From the IMG/VR virus record IMGVR_UViG_3300027749_000039, positions 126,603 to 190,602 of that record: a stretch of DNA of 64,000 nucleotides; one strand, given 5' to 3'. Both the position numbers and the translations under genes were made by a program. This document shows positions 3-35,712 of the stretch, piece by piece (positions within the stretch are counted from its first letter, which is position 1; the number at the start of each line of letters is the position of its first letter). This DNA comes from a virus. The notes under the pieces were generated by a model. The model saw nothing but the letters and a program-made list of their open reading frames with translations, had not been told where the DNA came from and ran no database searches.

Positions 3-443
3 GTAGTTTCAGAAGAAGAACCTTTTCGGAAGTGCATCCATCAGGGAATGATTCTAAACGAAGGCGAGAAGATGTCCAAATCAAAGGGCAATACTATTAA
101 TCCAGATTCTTATGACCAGGACACCTTAAGATTCTATCTTATGTTTATCGGACATTACTTTGATGGTGGTTCATGGTCTGATCAGAATATAGCTGGTATT
201 AATCGCTTTATTAATCGTTTTAAAGAGTGGATGTCAAGAGAGGGTGATGATGTTATAGATGTGCCATCTTTTAAAACTAAAATATCTAATTATACAGAAT
301 CTTTTAAGTTTAATAAGGTTGTATCTGAATTTATGACATTGGTTAATAAAGAACGGATAAAAAACTTGACCGCAGATTCTAAAGAAGAGTTGATTTCCAT
401 CTTGGAGATTTACATGCCTGGCATAAGAAATAAATTAATTTAA
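3..443 (+). CDS. leuS: Leucyl-tRNA synthetase, C-terminal part (gene starts before the window)
   Basis: Frame open from position 3: EEPFRKCIHQGMIL..GEKMSKSKGN (class I KMSKS), then DTLRFYLMF and a short helical anticodon-binding domain. Confidence 0.85.
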   Translation, partial: VVSEEEPFRKCIHQGMILNEGEKMSKSKGNTINPDSYDQDTLRFYLMFIGHYFDGGSWSDQNIAGINRFINRFKEWMSREGDDVIDVPSFKTKISNYTESFKFNKVVSEFMTLVNKERIKNLTADSKEELISILEIYMPGIRNKLI

Positions 444-444
444 T

Positions 445-753
445 ATGAAACACAAAGCACATAGAGCGAACCCGCAATATTATTTTGGCGAAGAAACACC
501 TTGTCATAAATTAGCAAATGATCTTATGGCTAATTTAGAATATAGCGGAGTGCTATCTGATGCTTTTTTAAGCTATATTTACACTAGTTTATTTAATATG
601 ATATACTATCACGATCATAATGATTTAGCTAATGGTAAGCAGTTATATAGCGATATAAACGATTTTTTAGATAGGTATTCTCTATTCTCTGATAGTTATA
701 AATCAACTGTTAGACGTCCATTTTTATTAATATTAAATTCAATTGAAAATTGA
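445..753 (+). CDS. Hypothetical protein
   Basis: 102 aa ORF tightly packed after leuS; no motif recognised. Confidence 0.6.
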   Translation: MKHKAHRANPQYYFGEETPCHKLANDLMANLEYSGVLSDAFLSYIYTSLFNMIYYHDHNDLANGKQLYSDINDFLDRYSLFSDSYKSTVRRPFLLILNSIEN

Positions 754-956
754 GATTAGATAGAATGCGATGGTTTGGTCCAGCAAGACCCGAAGATAAA
801 CCAGGTGTAGAAGGTTGGCGACATAGCAGATTATTCAAAGTAGTTAGGCATCAGGGTGCTAAAGCTCTTCGTGCTATAAGCAAAAAATTATGTAAGGAAT
901 CTATATCAGATAATGATATAGATTTTCCTACGTCTAAATATACAAGAAATCACTAA
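750..956 (+). CDS. Hypothetical basic protein
   Basis: Overlapping start/stop with neighbours. Confidence 0.5.
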   Translation: MRLDRMRWFGPARPEDKPGVEGWRHSRLFKVVRHQGAKALRAISKKLCKESISDNDIDFPTSKYTRNH

Positions 957-1201
957 TGGATATAAAATTAATAGGCATTTGGAATGACTCAGCAAGTGAT
1001 AAACCATTTTTTTGCGGATTACCACTAATTGGTCAAATATATGAAGGACATTTAGATCCTGATACAAACAATTCTTGGCTTGTAGTGACTACCAGTAATA
1101 AAATTGGATATCGAATATTTCCAAAAGAATTTCTCATGCCACTTGCTGAATGGCGAGATAAACAAATAGATTCAATTTTACAAGATGACGAAGAAAAATA
1201 A
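956..1201 (+). CDS. Small protein with C-terminal LAEWRDKQIDSIL motif
   Basis: Motif shared with several other ORFs in the window. Confidence 0.7.
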   Translation: MDIKLIGIWNDSASDKPFFCGLPLIGQIYEGHLDPDTNNSWLVVTTSNKIGYRIFPKEFLMPLAEWRDKQIDSILQDDEEK

Positions 1202-1361
1202 AAAACCACGAGATATAGTTAAAGAAACTGAAGAATATTTAGTTTTCCTCAAAAAACGCTTAGATTCGGCTAATTATAAAGCGAATGTTTCAAAAGAAGA
1301 ATATGATGAAACAAAGGCAAAATATGATAAGGTTAAATTAAGATTAAAATTATTAAAATAG
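1185..1361 (+). CDS. Hypothetical 58 aa protein (MTKKNKKPRDIVKETEEY...), below the ORF-track cutoff
   Basis: ATG 1185 to TAG 1361 fills the gap between genes. Confidence 0.55.
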   Translation: MTKKNKKPRDIVKETEEYLVFLKKRLDSANYKANVSKEEYDETKAKYDKVKLRLKLLK

Positions 1362-1395
1362 TAGTATTATATATATCATGATGTTGACGATCTTT
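1360..1395 (+). repeat. 36-bp exact direct repeat, copy 1
   Basis: AGTAGTATTATATATATCATGATGTTGACGATCTTT. Confidence 0.85.
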
Positions 1396-1656
1396 AATAA
1401 AAAAACTATGCTGGACATTACCAATAAAGAGGAAATACACATTTCATTTTTAAAAGAATTATTAGAAATGAATGGTTATAAAAAAGATGAATTAGATTTG
1501 ACAACTGACGATATTGAAATCGAAGGTAGATATATCAATCTAAACGTAGATAATACAGATTTTTCTATATCACTAGATGAGTATATTGAATATAGAAATT
1601 GGTGGATTGCATTAGAAAGAGAAGAAAAAATTAATTCTATATTAAATGAAGACTAA
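1378..1656 (+). CDS. Small protein ending REEKINSILNED (motif family)
   Basis: Variant of the shared C-terminal motif. Confidence 0.6.
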   Translation: MMLTIFNKKTMLDITNKEEIHISFLKELLEMNGYKKDELDLTTDDIEIEGRYINLNVDNTDFSISLDEYIEYRNWWIALEREEKINSILNED

Positions 1657-2191
1657 AATGGACTTACAAAAACAAATAGAAGCATTAAAATTGCAGCGCA
1701 TCCAAGAAATAATGGATGACAATAATGTATCAAAGATACAGAAAATAAAATTGTTTGAAAAAGAGCAATTGTTTAACTGTGCGCCTTATATACAACATGA
1801 ATTTCCTGATTGGGAAATAGAAGCTGTTGAATTGGAAAAATTGGAAGCTGAACGTATTTTAAAAGAAGGTTGCGATAATCCGAATGAAATATGTGCTAAA
1901 CAATTTTATCAATCAAAAATGACTGATACTATATTCGACCCATCTACTTTTTATTATGAGAAATATGAAACAGTTTCTTATTCCGATTCTTTACAAAATT
2001 GTTTAGAAAATGCGTTAGAAGATATTTCTGAGGAAGAATATGATGCAGTTGATAAAGATAATCCAATTATTACGGTTATAACAACAAGACATCCACATAC
2101 AGAGTTGAAAAAACCTTATAATGAAATCATAGATAAGGTTTATGAATTTTGTATAACAAATAAAATATGGGGTTTCAAAAATGATTGGTAA
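1646..2191 (+). CDS. Hypothetical acidic protein
   Basis: 181 aa ORF coupled to the upstream gene. Confidence 0.6.
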   Translation: MKTKMDLQKQIEALKLQRIQEIMDDNNVSKIQKIKLFEKEQLFNCAPYIQHEFPDWEIEAVELEKLEAERILKEGCDNPNEICAKQFYQSKMTDTIFDPSTFYYEKYETVSYSDSLQNCLENALEDISEEEYDAVDKDNPIITVITTRHPHTELKKPYNEIIDKVYEFCITNKIWGFKNDW

Positions 2192-2405
2192 AGCTATTTT
2201 CAAATTTAACAGTGGTCTTGCCGCTATTTTATGCTCTAAATGTAGAGTTATTATCAAAATTGGTAAAAATTTTACCGATGAAGAAACCATGGCATTTAAA
2301 GGTGAAATAGAATTAGAAGCGCAATTTTGTAAAAAATGTAAATTACAAAAATAAATATACAATAAAATTTTGTTTATTGAATACTTTTTCGTAATTTTGT
2401 ATCAT

Positions 2406-2630
2406 ATGAATAAAGAGAAATTAGGGCTGATGTTAGCCGAGTCACTAGAATTAAAATATAAAGCTGATAGAGCCGATGCTTTGGCAAGGTTTGCAGTTTA
2501 TATGAATAATCCAGTAGCAATTGGTGAACATCCACAGCATACGGAAGAAATGGATAAATTGGTTAGCCAATTTACAGATGCTAACGATAAATTATCGGCA
2601 TTAAAAGAAATGGTTGAAGCAATCAAATAA
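2406..2630 (+). CDS. Hypothetical phage protein with NPVAIGEHP motif
   Basis: Likely ATG at 2406, downstream of a TAnnTTTG promoter; the motif resembles a small T4-like phage protein from memory. Confidence 0.6.
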   Translation: MNKEKLGLMLAESLELKYKADRADALARFAVYMNNPVAIGEHPQHTEEMDKLVSQFTDANDKLSALKEMVEAIK

Positions 2631-2767
2631 AAAATATACGAAAAAGTTTTTAAAAACTTTGAAAATTAAAAACTTTTTCGTATTTTTGCTTAAAATAATA
2701 ACAAAAAGAAAAAAAAGCACTTTTAGAATATAATATATATAATTATACGAAAAAAACAAAAATAATT

Positions 2768-2798
2768 TTTGTAAATAAAAAACTTTTTCGTATCTTTG
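2768..2798 (+). promoter_or_regulatory. Bacteroidota sigma70-type promoter (TTTG-N19-TATCTTTG) for the Met/His/Trp/Phe/Ser/Lys tRNA-serS unit
   Basis: Matches the -33 TTTG / -7 TAnnTTTG consensus with a 19 nt spacer. Confidence 0.8.
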
Positions 2799-2831
2799 TT
2801 GTATAATAACAAACAATAAGAAATTAAATAT

Positions 2832-2903
2832 AGCGGGATAGAGCAGTGGTAGCTCGCAAGGCTCATAACCTTGAGGTCATTGGTTCGAATCCAGTTCCTG
2901 CTT
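2832..2903 (+). tRNA. tRNA-Met(CAT), initiator-like body
   Basis: Cloverleaf, anticodon arm CAAGG-CTCATAA-CCTTG, fMet-like GAGCAG..GGTAGCTCG D arm; A1:U72 paired. Confidence 0.9.
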
Positions 2904-2918
2904 CAAAAAAAGACATAT

Positions 2919-2990
2919 TGCGGAGTAGAGCAGTGGTAGCTCGCAAGGCTCATAACCTTGAGGTCGTTGGTTCGAATCCAGCCTCCGTTA
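2919..2990 (+). tRNA. tRNA-fMet(CAT), second copy
   Basis: Same D/anticodon arms as copy 1; U1xU72 mismatch, A73. Confidence 0.9.
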
Positions 2991-3029
2991 CTAAAAAATT
3001 AAAAACAATAACAACTTAAAAATTATTTT

Positions 3030-3119
3030 ATGAAACATTTCAGCTCACATAAACATTCGTTTAAATTCTGGTTTAGCAATCAGGGTTCGGTAGAGTTTTG
3101 TTTCAAAAATGCTTCATAA
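3030..3119 (+). CDS. Attenuator leader peptide L1: MKHFSSHKHSFKFWFSNQGSVEFCFKNAS
   Basis: 3 His, 6 Phe, 1 Trp, 6 Ser; directly upstream of a terminator and His/Trp/Phe/Ser tRNAs. Confidence 0.85.
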   Translation: MKHFSSHKHSFKFWFSNQGSVEFCFKNAS

Positions 3120-3138
3120 GAAGTTATTGAAATGAACT

Positions 3139-3179
3139 AAAAATCTCCGAACTTTATATAAAGTTCGGAGATTTTTTTT
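3139..3179 (+). terminator. Intrinsic terminator of attenuator L1
   Basis: AAAAATCTCCGAACTT-TATATA-AAGTTCGGAGATTTTTTTT. Confidence 0.9.
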
Positions 3180-3183
3180 ATAT

Positions 3184-3257
3184 GGTGATATTGGTGTTAG
3201 CGGTTAGCATGGGACCCTGTGAAGGTCTAGGGACGGATTCGAATTCCGTATATCACC
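3184..3257 (+). tRNA. tRNA-His(GTG)
   Basis: GGACC-CTGTGAA-GGTCT; encoded G-1 opposite C73. Confidence 0.9.
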
Positions 3258-3327
3258 CAAGAAAAGGTAGATTAAACAAAGAAATTATTTAATTGAAACT
3301 AGTATAGATTAAATAATCGTATTGATG

Positions 3328-3379
3328 GTAAAGGTAAGCGGTTAAGCGGAAGATAGTGGTTCGAATCCACTCCTTTTCA
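3328..3379 (+). ncRNA. tRNA-like unit lacking an anticodon arm
   Basis: Acceptor GTAAAGG/CCTTTTC, perfect T arm AGTGG-TTCGAAT-CCACT, only 20 nt between them. Confidence 0.5.
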
Positions 3380-3390
3380 CGAAATAATAT

Positions 3391-3464
3391 GGTGATTGTA
3401 GCTCAATTGGTAGAGCGCAGGTTTGTGGAACCTGAGGTAGCGGGGTCGGAGCTCGTCAATCACC
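3391..3464 (+). tRNA. tRNA-His(GTG), second copy
   Basis: CAGGT-TTGTGGA-ACCTG; G-1:C73; atypical T loop GTCGGAG. Confidence 0.85.
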
Positions 3465-3469
3465 CAATA

Positions 3470-3542
3470 AGGTAATCAAGCTAACTTGGTAACGTGGGAG
3501 ATTCCAACCCTCCAGTCGTCGGATCGTAACCGGCTGTTCGTG
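3470..3542 (+). pseudogene. Degenerate tRNA-Trp(CCA)-like unit
   Basis: Anticodon loop TTCCAAC, intact T arm and G73, but the 5' acceptor strand does not pair. Confidence 0.45.
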
Positions 3543-3553
3543 CAAAATAAAAT

Positions 3554-3626
3554 ACGGGTATGGTGAAAATGGCTATCATTTTTGTCTCCAAAACAAAAGT
3601 TCCGGATTCGAATTCTGGTGCCCGTG
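3554..3626 (+). tRNA. tRNA-Trp(CCA)
   Basis: TTTGT-CTCCAAA-ACAAA; ACGGGTA/TGCCCGT; G73. Confidence 0.9.
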
Positions 3627-3633
3627 CTAAAAT

Positions 3634-3705
3634 GGTGTTGTAACATAGAGGTTTATGTGTTGATCTGAAAAATCAAAAATGCCAGATCGTTACTGGCCGA
3701 CACCA
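3634..3705 (+). tRNA. tRNA-Phe(GAA)
   Basis: TTGAT-CTGAAAA-ATCAA; A73; T loop ATCGTTA. Confidence 0.85.
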
Positions 3706-3768
3706 CAAAAATAAATTAAAAAAGGAAGACGCACCCATTTTATATATAAGTAAATAACAAATATAAAA

Positions 3769-4647
3769 ATGGGTGCGAATTCAAAAGAATGGACAGAAAA
3801 GGAAAAAGAAATACTTTTTAAATATTTTCCGAGTATGGGTAGTAATTATTGTTCAGAATTAACAGGAAGAACAAAAAGAGCTTGTCAAGAAATGGCAAAA
3901 AAATTAAAATTGAAGAGAGATTTAGATAAGTATGAAGATAAAGAAAAATTAGAGGAGTTAGTTAAAGGTTGTAAATCATATACAGAATGTGTAATAAAAT
4001 TGGGGTTATCTCCCAGATGTTCTGGTAATTTTCAGACTATCAAAAAATATATCACAATATATAATATAGATATTTCACATTTTGAAAATGGATTTCAAAT
4101 AGGCAACAAACCTCAAAATAAGAAAGAATTATCAGAAGTTTTAATAGAAAACTCTTTTTTTAGCAGAACTCATCTTAAAGAGAGACTATATAAAGAGGAA
4201 TTAAAAAAGAAAGAATGTGAGATATGTGGAATTGGTGAAGATTGGTTTAATGGAACTAAAATAGTCCATATTTTAGACCATATAAATGGTGAGCCTTATG
4301 ATAATCGTCTTGAAAATTTAAGAATCGTTTGTCCTAATTGTAATTCAACATTAGAAACAAATTGTGTTGGGAATAAAGTTAATAAAATATATGATTCTAA
4401 AAAAGATGAATATAAAAGTGAAAAAACACATAAAAAATGTAATTGTGGTAAAATAATTTTGAAAGAAAGTAAATTTTGTTCAGAATGCAATGCCAAAAGT
4501 AAAAGAAAAATTATTAATAGACCAACATTTGAAGAATTAGTTAAGTTAATAGAAGAAAATGGTAATACTGGAACAGGTAAAATATACGGCGTTAGCGAAG
4601 CTGTCATAAGAAAATGGTTAAAACAATATAAAAATAAATTAGTATAG
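3769..4647 (+). mobile_element. HNH homing endonuclease inside tRNA cluster 1
   Basis: CEICG...LDHINGEPYDNRLENLRIVCPNCNS; C-terminal RPTFEEL..YGVSEAVIRKW HTH; N-terminal Myb-like repeat. Confidence 0.9.
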
Positions 4648-4660
4648 AATATACTAAAAT

Positions 4661-4735
4661 ACAGACTAGTCTATGGTAGTCGGCGGAACTCCAAATCCCG
4701 TGTGACTCGAGTCAGTTCAATTCTGGCAGTCTGTG
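4661..4735 (+). tRNA. tRNA-Trp(CCA), second
   Basis: Loop CTCCAAA, acceptor ACAGACT/AGTCTGT, G73; one mismatch in the anticodon stem. Confidence 0.7.
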
Positions 4736-4745
4736 CTAATAAATT

Positions 4746-4829
4746 GGAAAGTCCTAATTAGGAGTAGTTAGCCGTTTTGAAAACGGTGAAGGTGTAATAG
4801 CCGTGGGGGTTCGAGTCCGTCACTTTCCG
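4746..4829 (+). tRNA. tRNA-Ser(TGA)
   Basis: GCCGT-TTTGAAA-ACGGT, long variable arm, G73. Confidence 0.8.
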
Positions 4830-4840
4830 CAAAATAAAAT

Positions 4841-4918
4841 ACGGGTTTCGTCTAATATTTAAGACACCTCCCGGCAAGGGAGTTAATGTTGTAAGGGTGA
4901 AAATCCTACAACCCGTGC
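4841..4918 (+). pseudogene. tRNA-like unit with unassignable anticodon loop
   Basis: Acceptor ACGGGTT/AACCCGT plus G73 (Trp-like), D stem GTCT/AGAC, loop GGCAAG (6 nt), T loop GTGAAAA. Confidence 0.45.
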
Positions 4919-4933
4919 AAAAAGATTAAAATT

Positions 4934-4969
4934 ATGAAACAATATAAACAGATTAAACAAAAACAATAA
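4934..4969 (+). CDS. Lys-rich mini leader peptide MKQYKQIKQKQ
   Basis: 4 AAA codons in 11, directly upstream of three tRNA-Lys genes; followed by two mutually exclusive hairpins. Confidence 0.6.
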   Translation: MKQYKQIKQKQ

Positions 4970-5001
4970 GTTAGGCTCCTATGGATGCTTAACAAATATA
5001 A

Positions 5002-5076: not shown

Positions 5077-5079
5077 AAA

Positions 5080-5151: not shown

Positions 5152-5156
5152 CAATA

Positions 5157-5228: not shown

Positions 5229-5244
5229 CAAAAAATTTTTAAAA

Positions 5245-6513
5245 ATGTTAGAAATAAAATTATTTAGGCAAAATAAGGACCTAATTATAGAAGGACTTAA
5301 AAAGAAAAATTTTAAGCAACTTAATTTAGTTGATGAAATTATTAAATTGGATGAAGATTTAAGAAAATTAAAACAGGAAACTGAAAATTTAACTTCTGTT
5401 ATTAATAAAAATAATAGCGAAATTGCAAGATATATTAAAACAGATGCAGTTAAGGTAGAAAATATTAAAACTCATAATATTATTTTAAATGAAAAAATTG
5501 AGGAATTAACTAATATACTAAATCAAACTGAAAACGAGTTATTGGATAATTTAATTCAATTACCAAATCTTCCAAATCAAATTGTAGAAATAGACAATGG
5601 TAATGAAGCAACTAATGGTAATGTTATTATAAGAGAAAACTTAACTCAGTGTACACAAGGTAAACCTCATTGGGAAGTAATTAAAGATTTAAATATAGTT
5701 AGTTTTGAACTAGGAACTAAAATTACTGGTGCTGGGTTTCCTGTTTATATCGGAAAAGGCGCAAGATTACAAAGAGCTTTAATTCAATATTTTTTAGATT
5801 ATAATACTAATGCTGGTTATACAGAATATAATATACCATTAATGGTTAATTATGATTCTGCATATGGTACAGGACAACTCCCTGATAAAGAAGGTCAAAT
5901 GTATTATGCTGAAAAGGATAATTTATACTTAATTCCAACAGCAGAAGTTCCTTTAACTAATATCTTTAGAGATGAAATAGTTAATTTGCCCATAAAAATG
6001 ACAGGACATAGTGCTTGTTTTAGAAGAGAAGCTGGCGCACATGGTAAAGAAGTAAGAGGGTTAAATCGAGTTCATCAATTTGAAAAAGTTGAAATAGTTC
6101 AATTAGTTCAACCTGATAAAAGTTATGAAGTATTGGAAGAAATGGTTTTACATGTTGAGAACTTGATAAAAAGCTTAGAATTACCATATAGAATACTTAA
6201 ATTAAGTGGCACAGATATGAGTTTTGCATCTGCTTTAACTTATGACTTTGAAGTATATAGTGCGGCTCAAGACAGATGGTTAGAAGTAAGTTCTGTGAGT
6301 AATTTTGAAACTTTCCAATCTAATCGTATGAAAATTAGATTTAAAGAAGATAAAAAGAACAAATTAGTTCATACTTTAAATGGAAGTTCTTTAGCATTAC
6401 CAAGAATAATGGCTTGCTTATTAGAAAATAATCAAACACATGAAGGTATAAAAATACCAGAAGTATTAATACCGTATTACGGTGACAAATTTTTAACAAA
6501 TGGAAAATTATAA
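5245..6513 (+). CDS. serS: Seryl-tRNA synthetase
   Basis: N-terminal coiled coil, LIPTAEVPL, CFRREAG..RGLNRVHQFEKVE, HTLNGSSLALPR. Confidence 0.97.
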   Translation: MLEIKLFRQNKDLIIEGLKKKNFKQLNLVDEIIKLDEDLRKLKQETENLTSVINKNNSEIARYIKTDAVKVENIKTHNIILNEKIEELTNILNQTENELLDNLIQLPNLPNQIVEIDNGNEATNGNVIIRENLTQCTQGKPHWEVIKDLNIVSFELGTKITGAGFPVYIGKGARLQRALIQYFLDYNTNAGYTEYNIPLMVNYDSAYGTGQLPDKEGQMYYAEKDNLYLIPTAEVPLTNIFRDEIVNLPIKMTGHSACFRREAGAHGKEVRGLNRVHQFEKVEIVQLVQPDKSYEVLEEMVLHVENLIKSLELPYRILKLSGTDMSFASALTYDFEVYSAAQDRWLEVSSVSNFETFQSNRMKIRFKEDKKNKLVHTLNGSSLALPRIMACLLENNQTHEGIKIPEVLIPYYGDKFLTNGKL

Positions 6514-6915: not shown

Positions 6916-6921
6916 AATTTT

Positions 6922-7136: not shown

Positions 7137-7142
7137 CTAATA

Positions 7143-7230
7143 GGAAAGTTGGCAGAGCGGTTTAATGCGCTGGCACTGAAGCCGGTGACTGGCAAAAGCC
7201 GGTCCGTGAGTTCGAATCTCATACTTTCTT
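7143..7230 (+). pseudogene. Ser-type tRNA with a 6-nt anticodon loop (ACTGAA) and U73
   Basis: Ser-like body with long variable arm; the loop is one nt short of canonical CTTGAAA. Confidence 0.6.
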
Positions 7231-7234
7231 ATAT

Positions 7235-16678: not shown

Positions 16679-16746
16679 AGTATAGTAGCTCAATTGGTAG
16701 AGCGGTGGTGATTCACAGGCAGTAGGTTCAAAACCTATCTATACAC
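16679..16746 (+). ncRNA. tRNA-like unit with shrunken anticodon arm
   Basis: Canonical D arm (GCTC-AATTGGTA-GAGC) and T arm; the anticodon arm is only 12 nt (GTGGTGATTCAC). Confidence 0.55.
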
Positions 16747-17911: not shown

Positions 17912-17994
17912 GCGAGTATAGTATAACGGAGGCGAAAGCCGTATTATGCTGGTCTTCCAAACCGGATATGAGAGTTCGATTCTCTCTACTCGCT
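17912..17994 (+). tRNA. tRNA-Gly(TCC) with an extra hairpin inserted in the D loop
   Basis: CTGGT-CTTCCAA-ACCGG; D loop contains GGC-GAAA-GCC. Confidence 0.82.
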
Positions 17995-18001: not shown

Positions 18002-18075
18002 GGGTTGTATATTTTAATGATAGAATGCTGCGGGATTATAAAGCGGCGGTGTGAGACCAATTCTCATTATAACCC
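18002..18075 (+). pseudogene. tRNA-like unit with His-type G-1:C73 acceptor and an 11-nt anticodon loop
   Basis: GGTTGTA/TATAACC, GCTGC-GGGATTATAAA-GCGGC, T loop ACCAATT. Confidence 0.45.
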
Positions 18076-18858: not shown

Positions 18859-19638
18859 ATGGACGATAACGTCCGCTCCTATGACGAAACAACTCTGTTT
18901 TGTCCTGCAGGAATGTCCCAATACAAATCCTTATTTAAGGATATTAACCACAAGGGAACAATAAGTAATATACAATCTTGCCTTCGTTTAAACGATATGG
19001 AAGAAATAGGTGATGGGAGCCACCTATTGTATTTTAACATGATTGGATTATTCTCGTTTAGAGAAATGACTATACAAGAAGCTATTGACTTTTGGATGGA
19101 ATTTCTCTATAAAATCAATTGTATTCCTGATTACATTACTATTCATCCTGATAAACCTGAATGGCGAGATTTCTATTCTAATTATAATGTTGAAATACGT
19201 TATGATGAAGGGTGTATATGGAGTGACGGAGGTATCGGTGGCTACTGCACTGAATTTTACAAGGATGATATTGAAATAGGTAATATAGTTAATCCGTTAG
19301 GTACTTGTATTGACGCAGGGTGGGGTTTGGAACGTATAGAAATGGTTTTATATAATGAGAGAAAAACAAAAGAAGAAACCTTAATTAATACAATTATGAA
19401 AATGATTGAAAGCGGATTTACACCTACTTACAATAAACAAGGTTCTCTTTTGCGAAAACTTTTAAGAATTTGTTATTTAGAAAAAATAGAAGTTCCGCAT
19501 CAATTTTACCAAGATGAAATTTTGAGACAACAAAAAATTATAGAAAAATATAATAGAATGAAAGAGAAACCTAAGTTTAAAAATATGTCTAAGGAGTTTT
19601 GGTTTAATACTCTTGGTATTGATATAGATTTAATGTGA
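18859..19638 (+). CDS. alaS: Minimal alanyl-tRNA synthetase (catalytic domain only); true start may lie up to ~28 codons upstream
   Basis: DETTLFCPAGMSQYK, QSCLRLND.EEIGDGSHL.YFNMIGLFSF, IEIGNIV, IDAGWGLERI; no editing or C-Ala domain. Confidence 0.85.
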   Translation: MDDNVRSYDETTLFCPAGMSQYKSLFKDINHKGTISNIQSCLRLNDMEEIGDGSHLLYFNMIGLFSFREMTIQEAIDFWMEFLYKINCIPDYITIHPDKPEWRDFYSNYNVEIRYDEGCIWSDGGIGGYCTEFYKDDIEIGNIVNPLGTCIDAGWGLERIEMVLYNERKTKEETLINTIMKMIESGFTPTYNKQGSLLRKLLRICYLEKIEVPHQFYQDEILRQQKIIEKYNRMKEKPKFKNMSKEFWFNTLGIDIDLM

Positions 19639-22932: not shown

Positions 22933-23006
22933 CAACACATATAATACGAAAATCTATTTGTTAATTCAAATAGATTTTCGTATTTTTGCTTATTAAAAGA
23001 AATTCT

Positions 23007-24080
23007 ATGAAATTTAACACATTTCCCGAAAATATAAATCCTTTCCAGAAAAAAGGTATAGTAAAGTTTGGTATCGATCCAACTGGCTCTGAGATGCATT
23101 TAGGACACCTCTTACCTTTGAGAATTGTGAAAAAATTCAAAGCCGAAGGTTTCCCTATACATATTATACTAGGCACATTTACAGCTCAAATTGGAGACGC
23201 TACTGGTAGAGATGCTACCCGTCCAATCTTAACAGAGCTAGAAACTATTGAAAATGGTGAAAAATTACTTCAACAAGTAAAAAGAATACTTGGTGATGAT
23301 ATAATAATTCACAAAAATACAACTTGGCATAATGCAATGCAACTACCAGAGTTTATGAAGGTTATATCTAATTTTTCAGTTCAAAAGCTATTAAATAGAG
23401 ATAATTTTGCTAAACGTATGGAAGCTCATGTGCCTATCGCTATGCACGAGTTGATGGGTCCAATACTACAAGGTATAGATTCATTTCAGTTAAATACTAC
23501 CGTAGAAGTTGGTGGTTCTGATCAATTATTTAATTTTGTAATTACAAGAGAAGTACAAGAATTATTGGGACAAACACCAGAAGTTTGTGTGCTATCTCCT
23601 GTTATTAACGGATTAGATGGACGTAAAATGTCTAAATCATTTGGTAATTGTATTTTTATTAATGATACCCCAGAAGATGTATTTGGTAAAGTTATGTCTA
23701 TTTCAGATGAAACTATGAGAGAGTGGCTTCCTATATTTTTTGACGAAATAGATGCTACAAAACATCCAATGGTTCAAAAGAAAGAATTAGCATTTCGAAT
23801 AACACAGGAAATATGGAGTTTAGAAGCGGCGGAAACGGGTAAAGCACACTTCCAATCTGTTATACAAAGTAGGGAACTACCTGAAAATATGCCTGAATTT
23901 GAAATAGGTAATTTAACTGAAATAGTTAGTAAAATTATTAATGGTTCTAAAACAGAAGCAAGAAGATTATTAACTTCAAATGCTGTTAAAATTAATGGTG
24001 AAAAAGTAGCAGAAGGGTTTGAAGTAAAGTCTGGTGATATAGTTAAAGTAGGTAAAAGAAATTTCGCAAAAATTATATGA
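23007..24080 (+). CDS. tyrS: Tyrosyl-tRNA synthetase
   Basis: GIDPTGSEMHLGH, EVGGSDQLFN, GRKMSKS, C-terminal S4 domain (VKVGKR). Confidence 0.95.
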   Translation: MKFNTFPENINPFQKKGIVKFGIDPTGSEMHLGHLLPLRIVKKFKAEGFPIHIILGTFTAQIGDATGRDATRPILTELETIENGEKLLQQVKRILGDDIIIHKNTTWHNAMQLPEFMKVISNFSVQKLLNRDNFAKRMEAHVPIAMHELMGPILQGIDSFQLNTTVEVGGSDQLFNFVITREVQELLGQTPEVCVLSPVINGLDGRKMSKSFGNCIFINDTPEDVFGKVMSISDETMREWLPIFFDEIDATKHPMVQKKELAFRITQEIWSLEAAETGKAHFQSVIQSRELPENMPEFEIGNLTEIVSKIINGSKTEARRLLTSNAVKINGEKVAEGFEVKSGDIVKVGKRNFAKII

Positions 24081-29989: not shown

Positions 29990-30768
29990 TTCCCTAAACT
30001 CATTTTTATTTCTATATATTTGTTATACTTTCTTTTAAGACCAAAAGTAAAGTCGGAATATAACCAATTTAAAAATTTAATAGAATTTTTTCTACCACCT
30101 ATATATAGAATAGAATGTTTATTATTACCATTTATAATTCTTCTGATAGAATATTTAATACCTAAATTAATAGATATATCTTCTAAATATTTCCAATCTT
30201 GTCCGTATGTGCTTGCAAAATATATTTGAGGTGATTTATTACTGAAGTTTATACACCCATCGCCGTCCATTATTCCTCTTAGAAAATATTTAATATCTTC
30301 CTGTTTAATCTTCATTAAATTAAAATCTGGCGAGGCTGTACTTTTATTTTCATAATTAAATGACCTAAATATATTTACAATATCTTTAGAACAGTATTGG
30401 ATACACGCAGATGTTTTTGTTCTGCCCTTTCTTAATCTTTCATTATAATAAAAATTTCCTAATTTTTCAAATATTGGTTTGATATCGTCTAAATCTTCTT
30501 TTAGTATTTCTATACCTATATTATTACCGACTAAATATCCATCAGACCATAATAATCCCATTATATAGGACACATAAGGATTATCAACTTTTTCAAATGT
30601 ATCTAAACTTGGGTAAATATATTTTTTATTATAACTCAATTTTAATTTTTTAGCTTTGTTTTTAACCATATCAATAGTAAAATTACTCAATATTTCATTT
30701 ATTTTAGTTGGTCCAATTTTGTGGTAGTTTTCTACCATGAATTTTATTTCGTGTTCTTTCCATTCCAT
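29986..30768 (-). mobile_element. LAGLIDADG homing endonuclease
   Basis: YIMGLLWSDG and YFLRGIMDGDG double motif. Confidence 0.88.
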
Positions 30769-30879
30769 AATTTATATATTATTTATGATATAGCCCCTAA
30801 TAATGTTTACACGCAAATAAAATAAATATGAAAATAATTTTGTCAATTCAAAACTTTTTCGTACTTTTGTAATCTAATT

Positions 30880-31075
30880 AAGAACATAGAAACTAGCATA
30901 GTGTAATAAACTATGTAAAAACTTTACATGCTCACAGAACGTTAAAATTTTATCATTATAACAGGTTACTTAATCGAAAGAAGATAATTGGTATAATGTA
31001 TATCTATAAGATATAATAAAATTATAACCTTTCAATCCGAAAGGCATAGACTTAGAGTGTAAAGAGTTTCAAAAA
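30880..31075 (+). ncRNA. Candidate structured ncRNA (~190 nt) with its own host-type promoter
   Basis: No ORF; nested helices AAACTTTACA/TGTAAAG-AGTTT, AGGTTA/TAACCT, CATAGT/ACTATG; two GAAA tetraloop hairpins. Confidence 0.45.
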
Positions 31076-31091
31076 TAAATCTGAAAATAAT

Positions 31092-31122
31092 TTTGCAAAT
31101 TAAAAACTTTATTGTATCTTTG
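31092..31122 (+). promoter_or_regulatory. Bacteroidota-type promoter for tRNA cluster 4
   Basis: TTTG-N19-TATCTTTG. Confidence 0.8.
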
Positions 31123-31206
31123 CAATACAATAATCAATAAAGAAACAAATAACGATAAAAAGTCCATAGAGGAAAAAAGTAGTTTAAAAATTAAATATAT
31201 AATATA

Positions 31207-31308
31207 ATGAAAAACATTAATAGAAATAATAATACCATAAATTTAGTCATAAATAACGTGAATACGTTATGCGTGATTAGAGGAGTTATGGGGTTAAGTC
31301 TATTATGA
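31207..31308 (+). CDS. Attenuator leader peptide L4: MKNINRNNNTINLVINNVNTLCVIRGVMGLSLL
   Basis: Residues 3-25 are all N/I/R/T/L/V/C, exactly the downstream tRNA set. Confidence 0.88.
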   Translation: MKNINRNNNTINLVINNVNTLCVIRGVMGLSLL

Positions 31309-31335
31309 TAATATTTCAAATATATTATAATATTT

Positions 31336-31369
31336 AATCTCAAACTCAAAAAGTTTGAGATTTTTTTTT
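31336..31369 (+). terminator. Intrinsic terminator of attenuator L4
   Basis: AATCTCAAACT-CAAAA-AGTTTGAGATT-TTTTTTT. Confidence 0.9.
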
Positions 31370-31379
31370 ATGTTAAAAT

Positions 31380-31467
31380 GGCGCAGTGATGAAACTGGTT
31401 AGTACATGCAGGACTTAAAATCCTGTGGACAGAAATGTCCGTGTCGGTTCGACTCCGACCTGCGCTA
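31380..31467 (+). tRNA. tRNA-Leu(TAA), long variable arm
   Basis: CAGGA-CTTAAAA-TCCTG; A73. Confidence 0.92.
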
Positions 31468-31474
31468 CAAAACT

Positions 31475-31548
31475 CGGCGGGTAGCTTAGACGGTAAAAGC
31501 ACGAATCTTATAAATTCGAGATAGTGGGATCGTTACCCACCCCTCCGA
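31475..31548 (+). tRNA. tRNA-Ile(TAT)
   Basis: CGAAT-CTTATAA-ATTCG. Confidence 0.85.
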
Positions 31549-31553
31549 CAAAT

Positions 31554-31626
31554 GGTTCTATCGTACAATGGATTAGTACAAGGCTCTTCTAAAGCCTTTA
31601 TGTGGGTTCGAATCCCGCTGGAACTA
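31554..31626 (+). tRNA. tRNA-Arg(TCT)
   Basis: AGGCT-CTTCTAA-AGCCT. Confidence 0.9.
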
Positions 31627-31677
31627 CAATCGTTATTAATTTTTATTAGGGAGTTCGGTTTATATAATATATAATTT

Positions 31678-32484
31678 ATGAGACATAAACAAACAGAACA
31701 AACTAAAAAGAAGTTATCAGAAATAAGAAAAAAATGGTTAGCAGATAATCCAGAAAAACATCCATGGAAAAGAAAAGATAAATTCTTATCTAAGCCTTGT
31801 GAATTTTTCAAAAAGAAATTATTGGAAAATAATTTAACTTTTTCGGAAGAACAAAACTTACTTGAAGGAAGAGCATATTCGGTAGATGTAGTTTTTTATG
31901 ATAAAATGATTGGATTTAAAATAAATGGAAATCAACATTATAATTCAGATAAAACTCTTAAAGATTATTATAAAAAAAGGAAAGAAGAGATTGAAATTTT
32001 AGGATGGAAATTATATGATATACATTATACAAAAGTTTATAATGAAAAATTTATAGAGGAAATAATAAAATTCATAAAAGAGCAAAAGGAAATTCCAAAT
32101 TTTAATTTTGAATTTTTTATAAAAAAGGTTAAAAAAATATGTAAAGATTGTGGTAAAGAAATATCATATAATAGCATAGAAAGATGTTTAAAATGTCATA
32201 ATATATCCAGAAGAACAGAAAAATATGAAGTTAATTTAAAATATAAAATAGGTGCTAATAAAAAAGAAAAATTTATAAAAAATTGTAATTGTGGTGAAAT
32301 AATATCCATAAATTCAAATAATTGTAAGGAATGTTTTGATAAAATACAAAGAAAAATAGTTGATAGACCAAGTTTAGAAATTTTATTAGAAGAGGTTAAA
32401 GATATAGGATATAGTGCGGTTGGTAGAAAATATGGAGTTAGTGATAATTCTATAAGAAAGTGGATAAAAAATTATCAAAAATAA
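31678..32484 (+). mobile_element. DUF559/Vsr-like homing endonuclease with C-terminal HTH, in tRNA cluster 4
   Basis: YSVDVVF..IGFKINGNQHY..R....EILGW; RPSLEILLEEV..VGRKYGVSDNSIRKW. Confidence 0.7.
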
Positions 32485-32488
32485 AAAT

Positions 32489-32560
32489 TGTCGTATAGCT
32501 TAGTGGGGAAGCGTCAGCAGAAGTAGCTGAAGGGCATAGGTTCAATTCCTGTTGCGACTA
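32489..32560 (+). pseudogene. tRNA-like unit, anticodon loop AGAAGTA (AAG, G33)
   Basis: TCAGC/GCTGA stem, normal D and T arms, U1xU72. Confidence 0.5.
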
Positions 32561-32567
32561 CAAATAA

Positions 32568-32639
32568 GGTTCCTTAACTCAGAGGCAGAGTGCTACTTTT
32601 ACATGGTAGAAGTCGGGATTTCAAAATTCCCAGGAACCA
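32568..32639 (+). tRNA. tRNA-Val(TAC)
   Basis: CTACT-TTTACAT-GGTAG. Confidence 0.88.
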
Positions 32640-32646
32640 CAAAAAT

Positions 32647-32718
32647 TGGAATGTAGCTCAGAGGCAGAGCAGGATCCTGTTAAGATCAAGGTCGAGATAT
32701 CGTAATTCTCCATTCCAG
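32647..32718 (+). tRNA. tRNA-Asn(GTT)
   Basis: GATC-CTGTTAA-GATC; G73. Confidence 0.85.
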
Positions 32719-32723
32719 CAAAT

Positions 32724-32795
32724 AGTCTTATAGCTCAAAGGCAGAGTGCCTGTTCGACATACAGGAGGTTGCGATATCGTAATTCGCTAAGACTA
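32724..32795 (+). tRNA. tRNA-Val(GAC), C33
   Basis: CCTGT-TCGACAT-ACAGG. Confidence 0.82.
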
Positions 32796-32804
32796 CAAAT
32801 AAAG

Positions 32805-32878
32805 GGGCGTATGGTGAAATTGGTTTATCACGTCTGACTGTTAATCAGTTATTATAGGTTCGAGTCCTATTGTGCCCG
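32805..32878 (+). tRNA. tRNA-Asn(GTT), second
   Basis: CTGA-CTGTTAA-TCAG; G73. Confidence 0.88.
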
Positions 32879-32905
32879 CTAATTAAATAAAAAAAGTAAA
32901 TAATA

Positions 32906-32984
32906 CGGAACGTACCGAGTCACACTGATAATGTGGATATTCGTAAAGGTGTTGAAAATGAGATTTCAAGATTCTCCGTTCCGA
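32906..32984 (+). ncRNA. D-armless tRNA-Ile(GAT)-like RNA with long variable region
   Basis: Perfect acceptor CGGAACG/CGTTCCG, A73, TCACA-CTGATAA-TGTGG, only 7 nt where the D arm should be. Confidence 0.6.
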
Positions 32985-32990
32985 CAAAAT

Positions 32991-33066
32991 GCCAAATTAG
33001 TATAGCGGCGATTATACCAACCTTGTAAGTTGCGAGACACCAGTTCGAGTCTGGTATTTGGCTCCA
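32991..33066 (+). tRNA. tRNA-Thr(TGT), CCA encoded
   Basis: CAAC-CTTGTAA-GTTG; GCC/GGC acceptor. Confidence 0.88.
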
Positions 33067-33100
33067 CTACTGATCAGAATCCAGTGATTCAGATCTAAAA

Positions 33101-33176
33101 CGGACTATAGCTCATTATTGGTTAGAGCGTCACGCTGATAACGTGAAGGTGGTTGGATCGAAGCCAGCTAGTCCGA
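33101..33176 (+). tRNA. tRNA-Ile(GAT)
   Basis: TCACG-CTGATAA-CGTGA. Confidence 0.9.
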
Positions 33177-33182
33177 CAAAAT

Positions 33183-33255
33183 GCTAAAGTGTCTGAATGG
33201 TTGAGGAACTTTCTTGGTATGAAAGATAATATCGGTTCGAATCCGTTCTTTAGCT
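33183..33255 (+). tRNA. tRNA-Thr(GGT)
   Basis: CTTTC-TTGGTAT-GAAAG. Confidence 0.9.
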
Positions 33256-33261
33256 CTTAAT

Positions 33262-33334
33262 GGCGCCTTGGTCGAGTGGTTATAGGCGCAGGTCTGCAAA
33301 ACCTGATACATTGGTTCAATTCCAGTAGGCGCCT
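33262..33334 (+). tRNA. tRNA-Cys(GCA)
   Basis: CAGGT-CTGCAAA-ACCTG; U73. Confidence 0.92.
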
Positions 33335-33347
33335 CAAATTAAATAAA

Positions 33348-33623
33348 ATGAAACCGATTAAAAAAACATTTCTCTTTCTTCGCCAATTAACAAAAAATAA
33401 AGGCTTAGAGATACAACTAACTTTAGGTAAATTTATGTTTGGTGGAAGACCAAACTGGTTTGTAGTAGCATTTGAAACACGTTCAAAATGTGACCATGCT
33501 GGTGTTGAGTTTCGTTTAGAATTATTAAAAATATTTTATTTTCATATTAATATCTACGATTTTAGACATTGGAATTATACAACAGATACTTATTGTGATC
33601 ACGGTGATATATCCTATAGTTAG
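33348..33623 (+). CDS. Hypothetical protein (start at 33348; the track start overlaps tRNA-Cys)
   Basis: In-frame ATG after the tRNA. Confidence 0.6.
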   Translation: MKPIKKTFLFLRQLTKNKGLEIQLTLGKFMFGGRPNWFVVAFETRSKCDHAGVEFRLELLKIFYFHINIYDFRHWNYTTDTYCDHGDISYS

Positions 33624-33640
33624 TATTTAATATATACTAA

Positions 33641-34342
33641 ATGAAATGGATAAAATCATTTAGTGAAAGTTCAAAATATAAAGAGAAGGAAAGAACTGAT
33701 TACGCTTATAAATTAAAGAAAAAATTATTACAATTTAATTTAAATTGGCAAGAACTTATTTTCTTTTTGGAAGATAATGGATTTGATACATCAAAATTAG
33801 AAGAACTAAATGTTCCATCAAATTCATTTTTAAATAAAGGTTCATTTGGTATGGTTTTTTCTTATGGTAATGATAAAGTAATTAAAGTTAGTTTTAATAA
33901 ATTTGATTATGAATTTGCTAGAAAATTAATTGGGAAAGATAATGAACACTTACCAAATGTTTATGATATAAAAAGTATTTCTAATAATGTTTTAACTATG
34001 TTTATTATAGTTATGGAAAAATGTAAACCATTGCCTCAAAGTATAAAGACATATATAAATATCGAATATAAAAATATAGGTGAGTTTTTTAGAACACAAG
34101 ATCCAGAGTATCTAATACCTACAGAAGAAGAAGATTTGGAAACTTATAGAAAATATGATTTAGGAAATCAATTTTTAAGTATGATGGAGGAGATAAGAGA
34201 ATTATTTGGATTAAATAAAGACTTAGATATACATTCAGCAAATTTTATGATGAAAGAAAATAACCTTTGTTTTATAGATATTTTTGTTCCAAAGTATCTT
34301 ACAAAATTAGAACTTTCTAAAAGAAAATCAAAAACAAAATAA
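33641..34342 (+). CDS. Protein-kinase-like fold protein with capsid-targeting-like N-terminus
   Basis: KGSFGMVF..KVIK, DLDIHSANFM catalytic loop, FID; starts MKWIKSFSES. Confidence 0.7.
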   Translation: MKWIKSFSESSKYKEKERTDYAYKLKKKLLQFNLNWQELIFFLEDNGFDTSKLEELNVPSNSFLNKGSFGMVFSYGNDKVIKVSFNKFDYEFARKLIGKDNEHLPNVYDIKSISNNVLTMFIIVMEKCKPLPQSIKTYINIEYKNIGEFFRTQDPEYLIPTEEEDLETYRKYDLGNQFLSMMEEIRELFGLNKDLDIHSANFMMKENNLCFIDIFVPKYLTKLELSKRKSKTK

Positions 34343-34348
34343 ATATTT

Positions 34349-34379
34349 TTTGTAGTTTCAAAACTTTATTGTATCTTTG
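34349..34379 (+). promoter_or_regulatory. Bacteroidota-type promoter for the Leu/Met tRNA-asnS unit
   Basis: TTTG-N19-TATCTTTG. Confidence 0.8.
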
Positions 34380-34431
34380 TGTTATAATTAAAAATAGAAA
34401 ACAGACAAACAGAATTTAATATATAAATAAT

Positions 34432-34500
34432 ATGAAAAACATCAATCTAAATATGAATTTGCTTAATCTAATGGAAACATTGGACAGGATTCTTATATAG
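34432..34500 (+). CDS. Attenuator leader peptide L5: MKNINLNMNLLNLMETLDRILI
   Basis: Leu codons CTA x2, TTG x2, CTT x2; Met x3; Asn x5. Confidence 0.88.
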   Translation: MKNINLNMNLLNLMETLDRILI

Positions 34501-34524
34501 ATAACTTTATCATAAAGTTTTTAT

Positions 34525-34558
34525 AAAATCCTGTTCACAATCTGAACAGGATTTTTTT
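34525..34558 (+). terminator. Intrinsic terminator of attenuator L5
   Basis: AAAATCCTGTTCA-CAATC-TGAACAGGATTTT-TTT. Confidence 0.9.
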
Positions 34559-34561
34559 ATT

Positions 34562-34637
34562 GGCACTCTATCCCAACAAGAGCAGAGGACTCAGCTTTAG
34601 AACCTGAGAGTTGTGGGTTCAAATCCCACGAGTGTCA
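34562..34637 (+). tRNA. tRNA-Leu(TAG) with short variable arm
   Basis: TCAGC-TTTAGAA-CCTGA (C31xC39), 5-nt variable loop, A73. Confidence 0.7.
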
Positions 34638-34697
34638 CACAACTCGAACTCTGGTAGATAAAAAATAAGGGACTGTTATGTATATAATATATACATA

Positions 34698-35531
34698 ATG
34701 GAAAATAAAAAATTTATTGAAATATGCCAAACAGCCGTAAGTATGGCTGAGGCAGCTAGAATTATAGGAATTGGATTTAATTCTTTTAAGAAAAAAGCAT
34801 TAATATTAAATTGTTATAAAACTAATCAAAATTGGAGAAAAGGTAAAACTGTTTTAAATGATGATAGAATAGAAAGTAAACATACTTTATTTTGTGAAAA
34901 TTCTTCCGCAAGAAGAGAATATATTAAAGGTTTAATTATTAAACATAATTTAATTGAATATAAATGTTTTGATTGTGGATTAAAAAATGAATGGAATGGG
35001 AAAATTTTAAACTTACAGTTAGACCATATAAATGGTGTAAAAAATGATAATAGACTTGAAAATTTAAGATTTATGTGCCCTAATTGTCATTCACAAACAG
35101 AAACATGGTGTAAAAGTAAAGGTAATTCAATAAATAATTTAGATATAGAAATCTTAATTAATACTATAAATAAGTCATTTTCTATGACTAAATTAATTGA
35201 TAAATTAGGAATCTATGATACACAAAATAATAGAAAGAAAATCAAAAAAATAATGATAGAAAATAATCTATCTTTTGAATTTGATAAACAGGAAAAGAAT
35301 AAAATAAATAGTTGTAAGTGTGGTAAATCTATTAAAAAATCAAGTAAAATGTGTTCTAAATGTTGGCAGATAGAACAAAGAAAAGTTAATAGACCTACAT
35401 ATGAGCAGTTAAAAAAAGAAGTAGAAGAAATTGGATATTCAGCAACAGGTAGAAAATATAATGTTTCTGATAATTGCATAAGAAAATGGTTAAAAGCATA
35501 TGTACCCCAATTGGCAGAGGGACACCGTTAA
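34698..35531 (+). mobile_element. HNH homing endonuclease in tRNA cluster 5
   Basis: LQLDHINGVKNDNRLENLRFMCPNCHSQT; C-terminal TGRKYNVSDNCIRKW HTH; 3' end overlaps tRNA-Leu(AAG). Confidence 0.9.
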
Positions 35532-35570
35532 GAGCGGTGATAGGTGTCGGATCGTTGCCGACTATATGCA
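35496..35570 (+). tRNA. tRNA-Leu(AAG) with short variable arm
   Basis: CACCG-TTAAGAG-CGGTG; GCATATG/TATATGC; A73. Confidence 0.75.
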
Positions 35571-35638
35571 CAAAGATTGCGCTGATGAGAATTGTAGGTG
35601 CAATTTCTAGTTGTAGAGTATTTCACAATACTCTCTCT

Positions 35639-35712
35639 ACCGAAGTGATGTAATTGGTAAACATCTTATTTTCAAAAAATAAGTTTTGAGGGATCGTAGC
35701 CCTTCTTCGGTA
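35639..35712 (+). tRNA. tRNA-Leu(CAA) with short variable arm
   Basis: TTATT-TTCAAAA-AATAA; ACCGAAG/CTTCGGT; A73. Confidence 0.75.

Follow-up and report, generated by a model that had tools for sequence, protein, structure and literature searches.

The long variable arm is characteristic of tRNA-Leu, yet it is no identity element for the leucyl-tRNA synthetase (LeuRS) of Escherichia coli, which needs A73, A15-U48 and G18G19 instead and charges an arm-less minimal tRNA-Leu (PMC9976931). In Streptomyces coelicolor, a natural type I tRNA-Leu is charged by the single, normal LeuRS of the organism, and the tRNA elbow reportedly matters less for this substrate (PMC6614811). [quoted passage not shown] These deletion mutants and the split alpha-beta LeuRS of Aquifex aeolicus, whose beta subunit supplies the CTD in trans, mark LeuRS as a modular enzyme with a separable CTD (PMC3561953, PMC2377443). 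The LeuRS of Mycoplasma mobile (3ziu) has no CP1 domain, and the tetrapeptide GKDG replaces its Leu-specific domain (PMC3643597). Here, a 64,000-nucleotide (nt) stretch of viral DNA, referred to as the window, was analysed (positions 126603-190602 of the IMG/VR virus record IMGVR_UViG_3300027749_000039, designated G000). It carries the 3' end of a gene for a half-size LeuRS without a CTD, together with three Leu-anticodon tRNA genes without the long arm.

The explanation favoured for this combination, at a probability of roughly 60%, is that the three tRNAs are true leucine isoacceptors and that the LeuRS is a separable, editing-free accessory enzyme in the translation kit of a huge phage. The tRNAs would have arisen from long-arm tRNA-Leu that lost the arm and kept the bacterial identity set (A73, A14, A15:U48 and a Leu-type D-arm), and would read the minor leucine codons CUA, CUU and UUG, with a putative leader-peptide attenuator made of the same codons preceding their array. 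The enzyme, a body of 422 amino acids (aa), would be built from the Rossmann core, Zn1 domain and KMSKS plus the larger part of the helical anticodon-binding domain, with no editing function. It would not be specialised for the arm-less tRNAs and probably adds leucylation capacity for phage tRNA-Leu of either shape in a UUA-rich genome. Its own gene appears to be built for translation under Leu-tRNA scarcity, with fewer leucines and with TTG instead of TTA.

Within the window, the LeuRS gene comprises 146 codons and a stop (positions 3 to 443, + strand), assigned by translation, the TIGR00396 leuS_bact model, an AlphaFold2 model and Foldseek. KMSKS occupies residues 23-27 of this piece and the protein stops 119 aa later, in agreement with the first-pass annotation of the window, which had placed the end about 120 aa past the motif, leaving no CTD. 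The full leuS gene was recovered upstream in the same record (G000:125777-127045, corresponding to L001:673-1941). Its 422-aa product carries LHIGH at residues 17-21 and KMSKS at 299-303 and keeps HIGH and KMSKS as well as the cysteines of Zn1 and the motifs of the Leu pocket. Among NCBIfam models, leuS_bact is the best match (E 6e-122), with ValRS as runner-up (1.9e-45). The score of 408.4 bits, with about half of the 843-position model covered, is under the equivalog cut-off of 548.4 bits; LeuRS matches in the PDB reach E 1.5e-86. The AlphaFold2 model has a predicted local distance difference test score (pLDDT) of 93.8 and a predicted template modelling score (pTM) of 0.91. Its top Foldseek match is the CP1-less M. 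mobile enzyme 3ziu (query-based template modelling score (TMq) 0.92, E 1e-36), and LeuRSs of T. thermophilus, Neisseria gonorrhoeae and Agrobacterium radiobacter K84 follow at TMq of about 0.90 and that of E. coli at 0.87. The corresponding target-based scores (TMt) of about 0.45-0.5 indicate that the protein amounts to about half of a normal LeuRS.

Alignment with T. thermophilus LeuRS (Tt) resolves into four blocks, pairing residues 3-191 with Tt 35-223, 192-210 with Tt 418-436, 206-294 with Tt 487-578 and 299-360 with Tt 637-702. The skipped stretches are Tt 224-417, the CP1 editing domain, and Tt 579-636, the Leu-specific domain, in whose place the phage enzyme has four residues, NEGE, directly before KMSKS. 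A further alignment combined the protein with 44 relatives, and its deletions were scored against 21 LeuRSs of 725-835 aa. Relative to these, the protein lacks an N-terminal extension of 25-48 aa, 141-226 aa after residue 190 (CP1, about 190 aa), about 52 aa after residue 210 and about 86 aa at the C-terminus, including the CTD. Invariant or nearly so are H18 and H21 of HIGH, D49, E256, H257, M300 and K302 of KMSKS, and the acceptor-end motif RQRxWG (R200, Q201, R202, W204, G205). The M. mobile enzyme resembles the phage protein in the missing CP1 domain and in the tetrapeptide that stands for the Leu-specific domain. It differs in being 637 aa long, with a 52-aa insertion and a C-terminal tRNA-elbow domain that the 422-aa protein lacks, and in being the sole LeuRS of its cell, whereas the phage enzyme is an accessory one.

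The missing parts were also sought elsewhere. The CP1 editing domain PF13603 is absent from the 422-aa protein by profile and alignment, and neither G000 nor five near-complete relatives encode it as a separate gene; one weak match was set aside, lying inside a 749-aa frame of Val/Ile type. PF08264 has no match in G000. A profile built from 26 C-terminal extensions of LeuRS gave no match in G000 or the other loci retrieved (best E 0.35); unlike in Aquifex, no stand-alone CTD that could act in trans is detectable there. No neighbouring open reading frame (ORF) recurs as a conserved partner across 31 loci encoding the enzyme. The 422-aa protein is a true CTD-less LeuRS and an extreme form of the enzyme.

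This form is widespread. The best 120 word-index matches, counted as 90% identity clusters, are nearly all 412-442 aa long and 71-100% identical, and overall more than 100 clusters at 70-92% identity carry it, on contigs of up to 780 kb. At 50% clustering the whole family collapses to one representative, and beside it stand intermediates of 503-706 aa lacking CP1, the C-terminus or both. In all, the family counts about 7000 members. The gene was located on 31 IMG/VR contigs, five of which are 452-519 kb long and 97-100% complete; the copy in the phage genome LR745206 is 83% identical. Leu tRNA arrays precede the gene by 100-2000 bp, in the same orientation, at six loci (L005, L009, L011, L027/28 and L029). 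The array before it is exclusively long-arm in L029, while those of L011 and L027 hold both shapes for one anticodon. No account of this small LeuRS was found in the published literature, and minimal LeuRS 'urzyme' versions have, to our knowledge, so far been engineered only. A half-size LeuRS maintained at 70-92% identity on hundreds of giant-phage contigs would offer a natural test of the minimum needed for tRNA-Leu recognition, and would show a translation system running without leucine proofreading.

The three arm-less Leu-anticodon tRNAs reported by the first-pass annotation are real by both ARAGORN and the Rfam tRNA model RF00005 (cut-off 29 bits), with variable loops of 4-6 nt and A73. 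All lie on the + strand and carry A14 and A15:U48. tRNA-Leu(UAG) (34562-34638, 41.4 bits) has the D-loop AACAAGAGCAG, which lacks G18G19. tRNA-Leu(AAG) (35496-35571, 32.1 bits) has the T-loop AUCGUUG. The D-arm of tRNA-Leu(CAA) (35639-35713, 45.5 bits), UG-AUGU-AAUUGGUAA-ACAU, is tRNA-Leu-like, and this tRNA is the only UUG-specific one of the 190-kb record. A tRNA-Leu(UAA) of class II (31380-31468, + strand, 50.9 bits) has the normal long arm that had been described for it, with 89 nt, a 5-bp extra arm and A73. A further ARAGORN call, 'Leu(aag)' at 32489-32561 (+ strand, 47.8 bits), is missing from that annotation and is not Leu-like: its anticodon loop AGAAGUA lacks U33, it has G15 and C48, and it is closest to Ile/Val tRNAs.

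For comparison, tRNAs were gathered from eight related phages. The 21 arm-less Leu-anticodon tRNAs found in these show compensatory changes at 16 of 19 cloverleaf pairs. A15:U48 is present in 18 of 19 arm-less tRNA-Leu as against 37% of other short tRNAs, A73 in 95% of the 19 copies, and the two together in 17 of 19 as against 28%. The G1:U72 pair is shared by 70% of the arm-less tRNA-Leu and 85% of those with the long arm but by only 17% of other tRNAs (Fisher P 1.7e-7), and many arm-less copies keep the tRNA-Leu D-arm UG-GYG-AAUUGGUAGA-CRC. G18G19, which pair with U55 and C56 in the elbow, are retained in 35496 and 35639. The shared A15:U48 and A73, G1:U72 and Leu-type D-arm indicate tRNA-Leu minus the arm rather than anticodon mutants of other tRNAs; judged by these sequence features, the arm-less tRNAs are tRNA-Leu that lost the extra arm. 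In relatives, ordinary long-arm tRNA-Leu serve the same anticodons, and an arm-less UAA species also occurs.

The phage tRNAs share their short variable loop with S. coelicolor type I tRNA-Leu(CAA) and with mitochondrial tRNA-Leu, and as in S. coelicolor, type I and long-arm forms occupy one compartment. They extend the rare type I class of tRNA-Leu. The likeness has limits. A single full-length LeuRS serves both forms in S. coelicolor and needs its Leu-specific domain for the type I form, whereas the phage LeuRS has no such domain. A73 is no identity element there, while the phage copies mostly keep it. Finally, the S. coelicolor type I tRNA is a CAA species, whereas the arm-less isoacceptors of the phage are of several kinds (UAG, AAG and CAA, plus UAA in relatives). 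No report of arm-less tRNA-Leu in phages was found in the published literature. They would be the third natural case after mitochondria and Streptomyces and bear on the question of why the long arm exists; where both shapes serve one anticodon in one array, they can be compared directly.

The array of arm-less tRNAs is preceded by a 22-codon leader ORF (34432-34500, + strand), which reads MKNINLNMNLLNLMETLDRILI. Translation and codon counting bear out the earlier observation that its leucine codons match the three arm-less anticodons exactly, with two CTA, two TTG, two CTT and no TTA. TTA makes up 67% of the leucine codons of the record, and six non-TTA codons in such a leader have P = 0.0014. 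This match fits a role of the arm-less tRNAs as leucine decoders. Between leader and tRNA 34562, a terminator-like hairpin with a 10-bp stem and a T-run can be read from the sequence (34527-34559, + strand). A second leader ORF of 33 codons (31207-31308, + strand) holds four TTA codons and precedes a Leu(UAA)-Ile(UAU)-Arg(UCU) array; it is likewise followed by a hairpin and T-run, at about 31340-31370. In relatives, the leader MKTTLSLSLSLSLSLS of L029 is followed by a Leu/Ser tRNA array and then by the small LeuRS, and an L011 leader containing NLYYLYLYLY precedes a Tyr/Leu tRNA array.

The LeuRS gene is itself unusual in its codons. Of its 21 leucine codons, 16 are TTG, compared with 10% genome-wide, which puts the gene first among 180 ORFs by TTG share, whereas TTA accounts for 50-67% of leucine codons in the flanking genes. 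A general enrichment of G and C at third positions was rejected as the cause, as the same gene uses AAA over AAG (27/8) and GAA over GAG (27/6). The bias is stronger still in orthologues, covered in L003 and L004-L034, with TTG in 19/19 leucine codons of L004, 19/19 of L005, 20/20 of L006 and 18/18 of LR745206, and in 24-26 of 26-27 of nine further ones; a few orthologues are unbiased. In L011, 19 of 20 are CTG, and the L011 array alone carries tRNA-Leu(CAG). Using one rare codon in this way could serve bootstrapping or tRNA gating. Positions encoded by CTA, CTT or TTG in the LeuRS gene align with leucine in 94% of the alignment cells of the family and in 61% of those of cellular LeuRSs. The enzyme also contains less leucine, 21 residues as against 29-46 in the same columns of cellular LeuRSs, or 40% fewer. 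UUA alone makes up 5.4% of all codons of the genome.

Other synthetases of the window avoid their own amino acid as well. TyrRS (22986-24080) has no Tyr in 364 aa, where 20.6 are expected (P 6e-10), AsnRS (36306-37496) has two Asn in 396 aa (P 1e-12) and GlnRS (46280-47869) has one Gln in 529 aa (P 7e-6). Among 135 ORFs, each of these ranks last in content of its own residue, with normal contents of non-cognate residues. SerRS (5245-6513), LeuRS and an AlaRS-like ORF (18859-19638) show milder depletion. We read this avoidance as a probable design for synthesis while the cognate charged tRNA is scarce. That it is common to the synthetases supports the small LeuRS as a working member of the same translation module. 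No description of cognate-residue avoidance in phage synthetases was found in the published literature. Leaders with matching codons, synthetases behind tRNA arrays and the purging of own residues and major codons point the same way, and suggest a translation module designed to start under a shortage of exactly the charged tRNA that it supplies.

The source of the window is probably a huge Mahaphage-type phage infecting Bacteroidota. The window forms the right third of the 190.6-kb record, which has a GC content of 28.7%. When the window start was compared with phage records by megablast, the matches were tRNA pieces only, in LR745206, LR756504 and LR756502, 'uncultured phage' genomes of 634-642 kb. 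These genomes stem from Al-Shayeb et al. 2020, who assign their five genomes of more than 634 kb to the Mahaphage clade and predict replication in Bacteroidetes (PMC7162821). The synthetase and tRNA sets of huge phages presented there concern the same clade and express the same general idea, and the text searched describes no half-size LeuRS, arm-less tRNA-Leu, long-arm Lys, Asn, Thr and further tRNAs or cognate-residue avoidance (PMC7162821).

The first-pass annotation had proposed that the truncated LeuRS and the arm-less tRNAs form an orthogonal pair. This is not supported, as each feature is found without the other in complete genomes. G004 (519 kb, with terminal repeats) and G005 (482 kb), both 100% complete, encode the small LeuRS at 65-74% identity, while all their Leu-anticodon tRNAs are 80-88 nt long, every Rfam tRNA match being checked, including those missed by ARAGORN. 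Conversely, two complete genomes of the 636-642 kb class have arm-less tRNA-Leu and no LeuRS. LR756502 carries a 74-nt Leu(tag) and a 76-nt Leu(taa), whose D-loop AAUAGAGUUAG lacks GG, and has no match to the small LeuRS or to leuS_bact. LR756504 carries a 75-nt Leu(caa) and a 76-nt Leu(aag), and its only match is a weak class I frame with 25% identity. As positive controls for this search, G004 and G005 scored 231-266 bits. A need of the G18G19-less arm-less tRNA-Leu for a CTD-less enzyme was also rejected, as LR756502 has such a tRNA and no LeuRS. The premise that bacterial LeuRS requires the long arm is opposed by the data on E. coli LeuRS and S. coelicolor (PMC9976931, PMC6614811); the contact between CTD and elbow on which the proposal also drew is an established one (PMC3561953).

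That arm-less tRNA-Leu occur in complete phages without LeuRS suggests that the host LeuRS can charge them, as the favoured reading of leucine isoacceptors and an accessory enzyme would have it. Several observations weigh against that reading. E. coli LeuRS fails to charge S. coelicolor type I tRNA-Leu (PMC6614811), so charging of the phage tRNAs by the host is not guaranteed. Six of 19 arm-less copies, 34562 among them, lack the G18G19 that E. coli LeuRS requires, and the window copies have G1-C72 or A1-U72 rather than the clade-typical G1:U72. An active CTD-less phage enzyme would need some compensation for what CTD deletion destroys in the E. coli and T. thermophilus enzymes; neither a CTD in trans, nor an editing domain, nor a conserved neighbouring gene was found. 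G000 itself is a fragment, 31% complete by CheckV.

A second reading joins the observations into one chain: a naturally active LeuRS core, a relaxed tRNA shape and an mRNA wired to particular codons. The core, without editing domain, Leu-specific domain and CTD, would be blind to the elbow, with recognition of phage tRNA-Leu confined to the acceptor end (G1:U72/A73) and the core of the D-arm. Its presence would have relaxed the constraints on tRNA shape and made loss of the arm from phage tRNA-Leu possible. The leucine codons of its gene, nearly all one rare codon (TTG, or CTG in the relative with tRNA-Leu(CAG)), would let the enzyme be made without depending on UUA decoding where this is limiting, or hold back its production until one particular tRNA-Leu is present. 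As a whole, this chain is possible but must be called tentative.

A rather improbable alternative is that the phage protein is a LeuRS paralogue that charges no tRNA and makes leucyl-adenylate or binds leucine or tRNA, for example in regulation, in modification or as a decoy for host inhibitors. GluQRS and MshC are precedents of truncated synthetases with new roles. The sub-cut-off leuS_bact score (408 vs 548 bits), the failure of partner-domain searches and the reported loss of aminoacylation upon CTD deletion in the E. coli and T. thermophilus enzymes (PMC3561953) would suit such a protein. A non-charging role sits poorly with the retention of all ATP, leucine and KMSKS-loop residues and of the RQRxWG acceptor-end motif, and with the repeated placement of the gene behind Leu tRNA arrays and Leu-codon leaders. 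Moreover, its leucine avoidance and TTG use parallel the full-length SerRS, TyrRS, AsnRS and GlnRS of the window.

It is unlikely that the arm-less tRNAs donate an amino acid other than leucine, or meet host anticodon nucleases as decoys or spare parts. Some phage tRNAs are known to counteract tRNA-cleaving defences, and the D-loops without GG and the A54/U58 T-loops are unusual. The reassignment of CUN codons by odd tRNAs in yeast mitochondria offers a parallel (PMC7609411). The arm-less tRNAs carry the leucine identity set, though, in arrays that hold Leu tRNAs only; the same anticodons are served by ordinary long-arm tRNA-Leu in relatives, and the CTA, CTT and TTG codons fall at conserved leucine columns of LeuRS. 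Reassignment to alanine in particular was rejected, as G3:U70 occurs in none of them.

Least likely is the orthogonal pair itself, a CTD-less LeuRS co-evolved with arm-less tRNA-Leu that it alone charges and to which its activity is confined. In its favour, both features do coincide in the records of L011 and L027 as well as in G000, LR745206, G001, G002 and G003; G18G19 of the elbow that the CTD binds (PMC3561953) is missing from a third of the arm-less copies; and a natural type I tRNA-Leu was not charged by E. coli LeuRS (PMC6614811). Against it stand the two-way dissociation between G004/G005 and LR756502/LR756504, the position of the enzyme directly behind long-arm tRNA-Leu genes in L005 and L029, and gain or loss of the arm in nearly all tRNA families of the clade.

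This remodelling of the arm makes tRNA-Leu one case among many. Long-arm tRNAs of 82-92 nt were found for Lys, Asn, Thr, Met, Glu, Gln, His, Trp, Ile, Gly, Arg, Pro, Asp and Cys. Window examples are 35771-35856 (+ strand; anticodon CAU, 86 nt, A73, 50.0 bits in Rfam), a member of a class I family with an added arm, 44660-44749 (gtc, 90 nt) and 46023-46109 (ttg, 87 nt); further copies lie in L002, L003, L005, L035, L039-L042, L047-L053 and L061-L063. The families are conserved across the clade and their arm stems covary between phages. Their discriminators are G73 in Asn, Asp and Trp, C73 in His, U73 in Thr and A73 in Lys and Met tRNAs. The possibility that long-arm tRNAs of Asp, Gln, Met or similar type accept Leu, Ser or Tyr and act as mistranslators was rejected, given that the discriminators suit the anticodons and the families are conserved. 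The reverse case is represented by one arm-less tRNA-Tyr in L011. In G005, tRNA-model matches of 81-146 nt that ARAGORN missed lie at about 3396-5326 of L053 and 3775-3880 of L049; one, of 146 nt, has a long insertion, and several odd ones of 81-90 nt have normal T-arms.

The 45 tRNA genes called by ARAGORN in the window show further peculiarities. Some tRNAs (e.g. 31475, 32647, 32724, 35496 and 35639) have T-loops of the AUCGUAA/AUCGUUA kind or similar, in which U54 and A58 are exchanged for A54 and U58, while the remaining phage tRNAs have the usual UUCGAAU. Nearly all genes have C or CA after the discriminator, and a full CCA is rare. A 90-nt Ser-like tRNA at 7142-7231 was called with the four-base anticodon 'ctga', and three tRNA-like Rfam matches (16679-16746, 17912-17994 and 18003-18075) were not called by ARAGORN. 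Outside the window, G000:54412-54485 holds a tRNA with the amber anticodon CUA, and similar ones occur in G002 and G005.

Two ORFs resembling homing endonucleases lie among the tRNA genes. The one inside the arm-less array (34698-35531, + strand) is of HNH type, with matches just below cut-off to HNH_3 (E 3.8e-5) and HNH (E 3.9e-4), and its end overlaps the 5' end of tRNA 35496 by 36 nt. The other, at 31678-32484, shares with it a tail of zinc ribbon and helix-turn-helix. The AlaRS-like ORF at 18859-19638 adjoins a tRNA-Ala(GGC); its 259 aa match positions 27-169 of an 847-position AlaRS model (E 3.9e-19), and it may be another drastically reduced synthetase.

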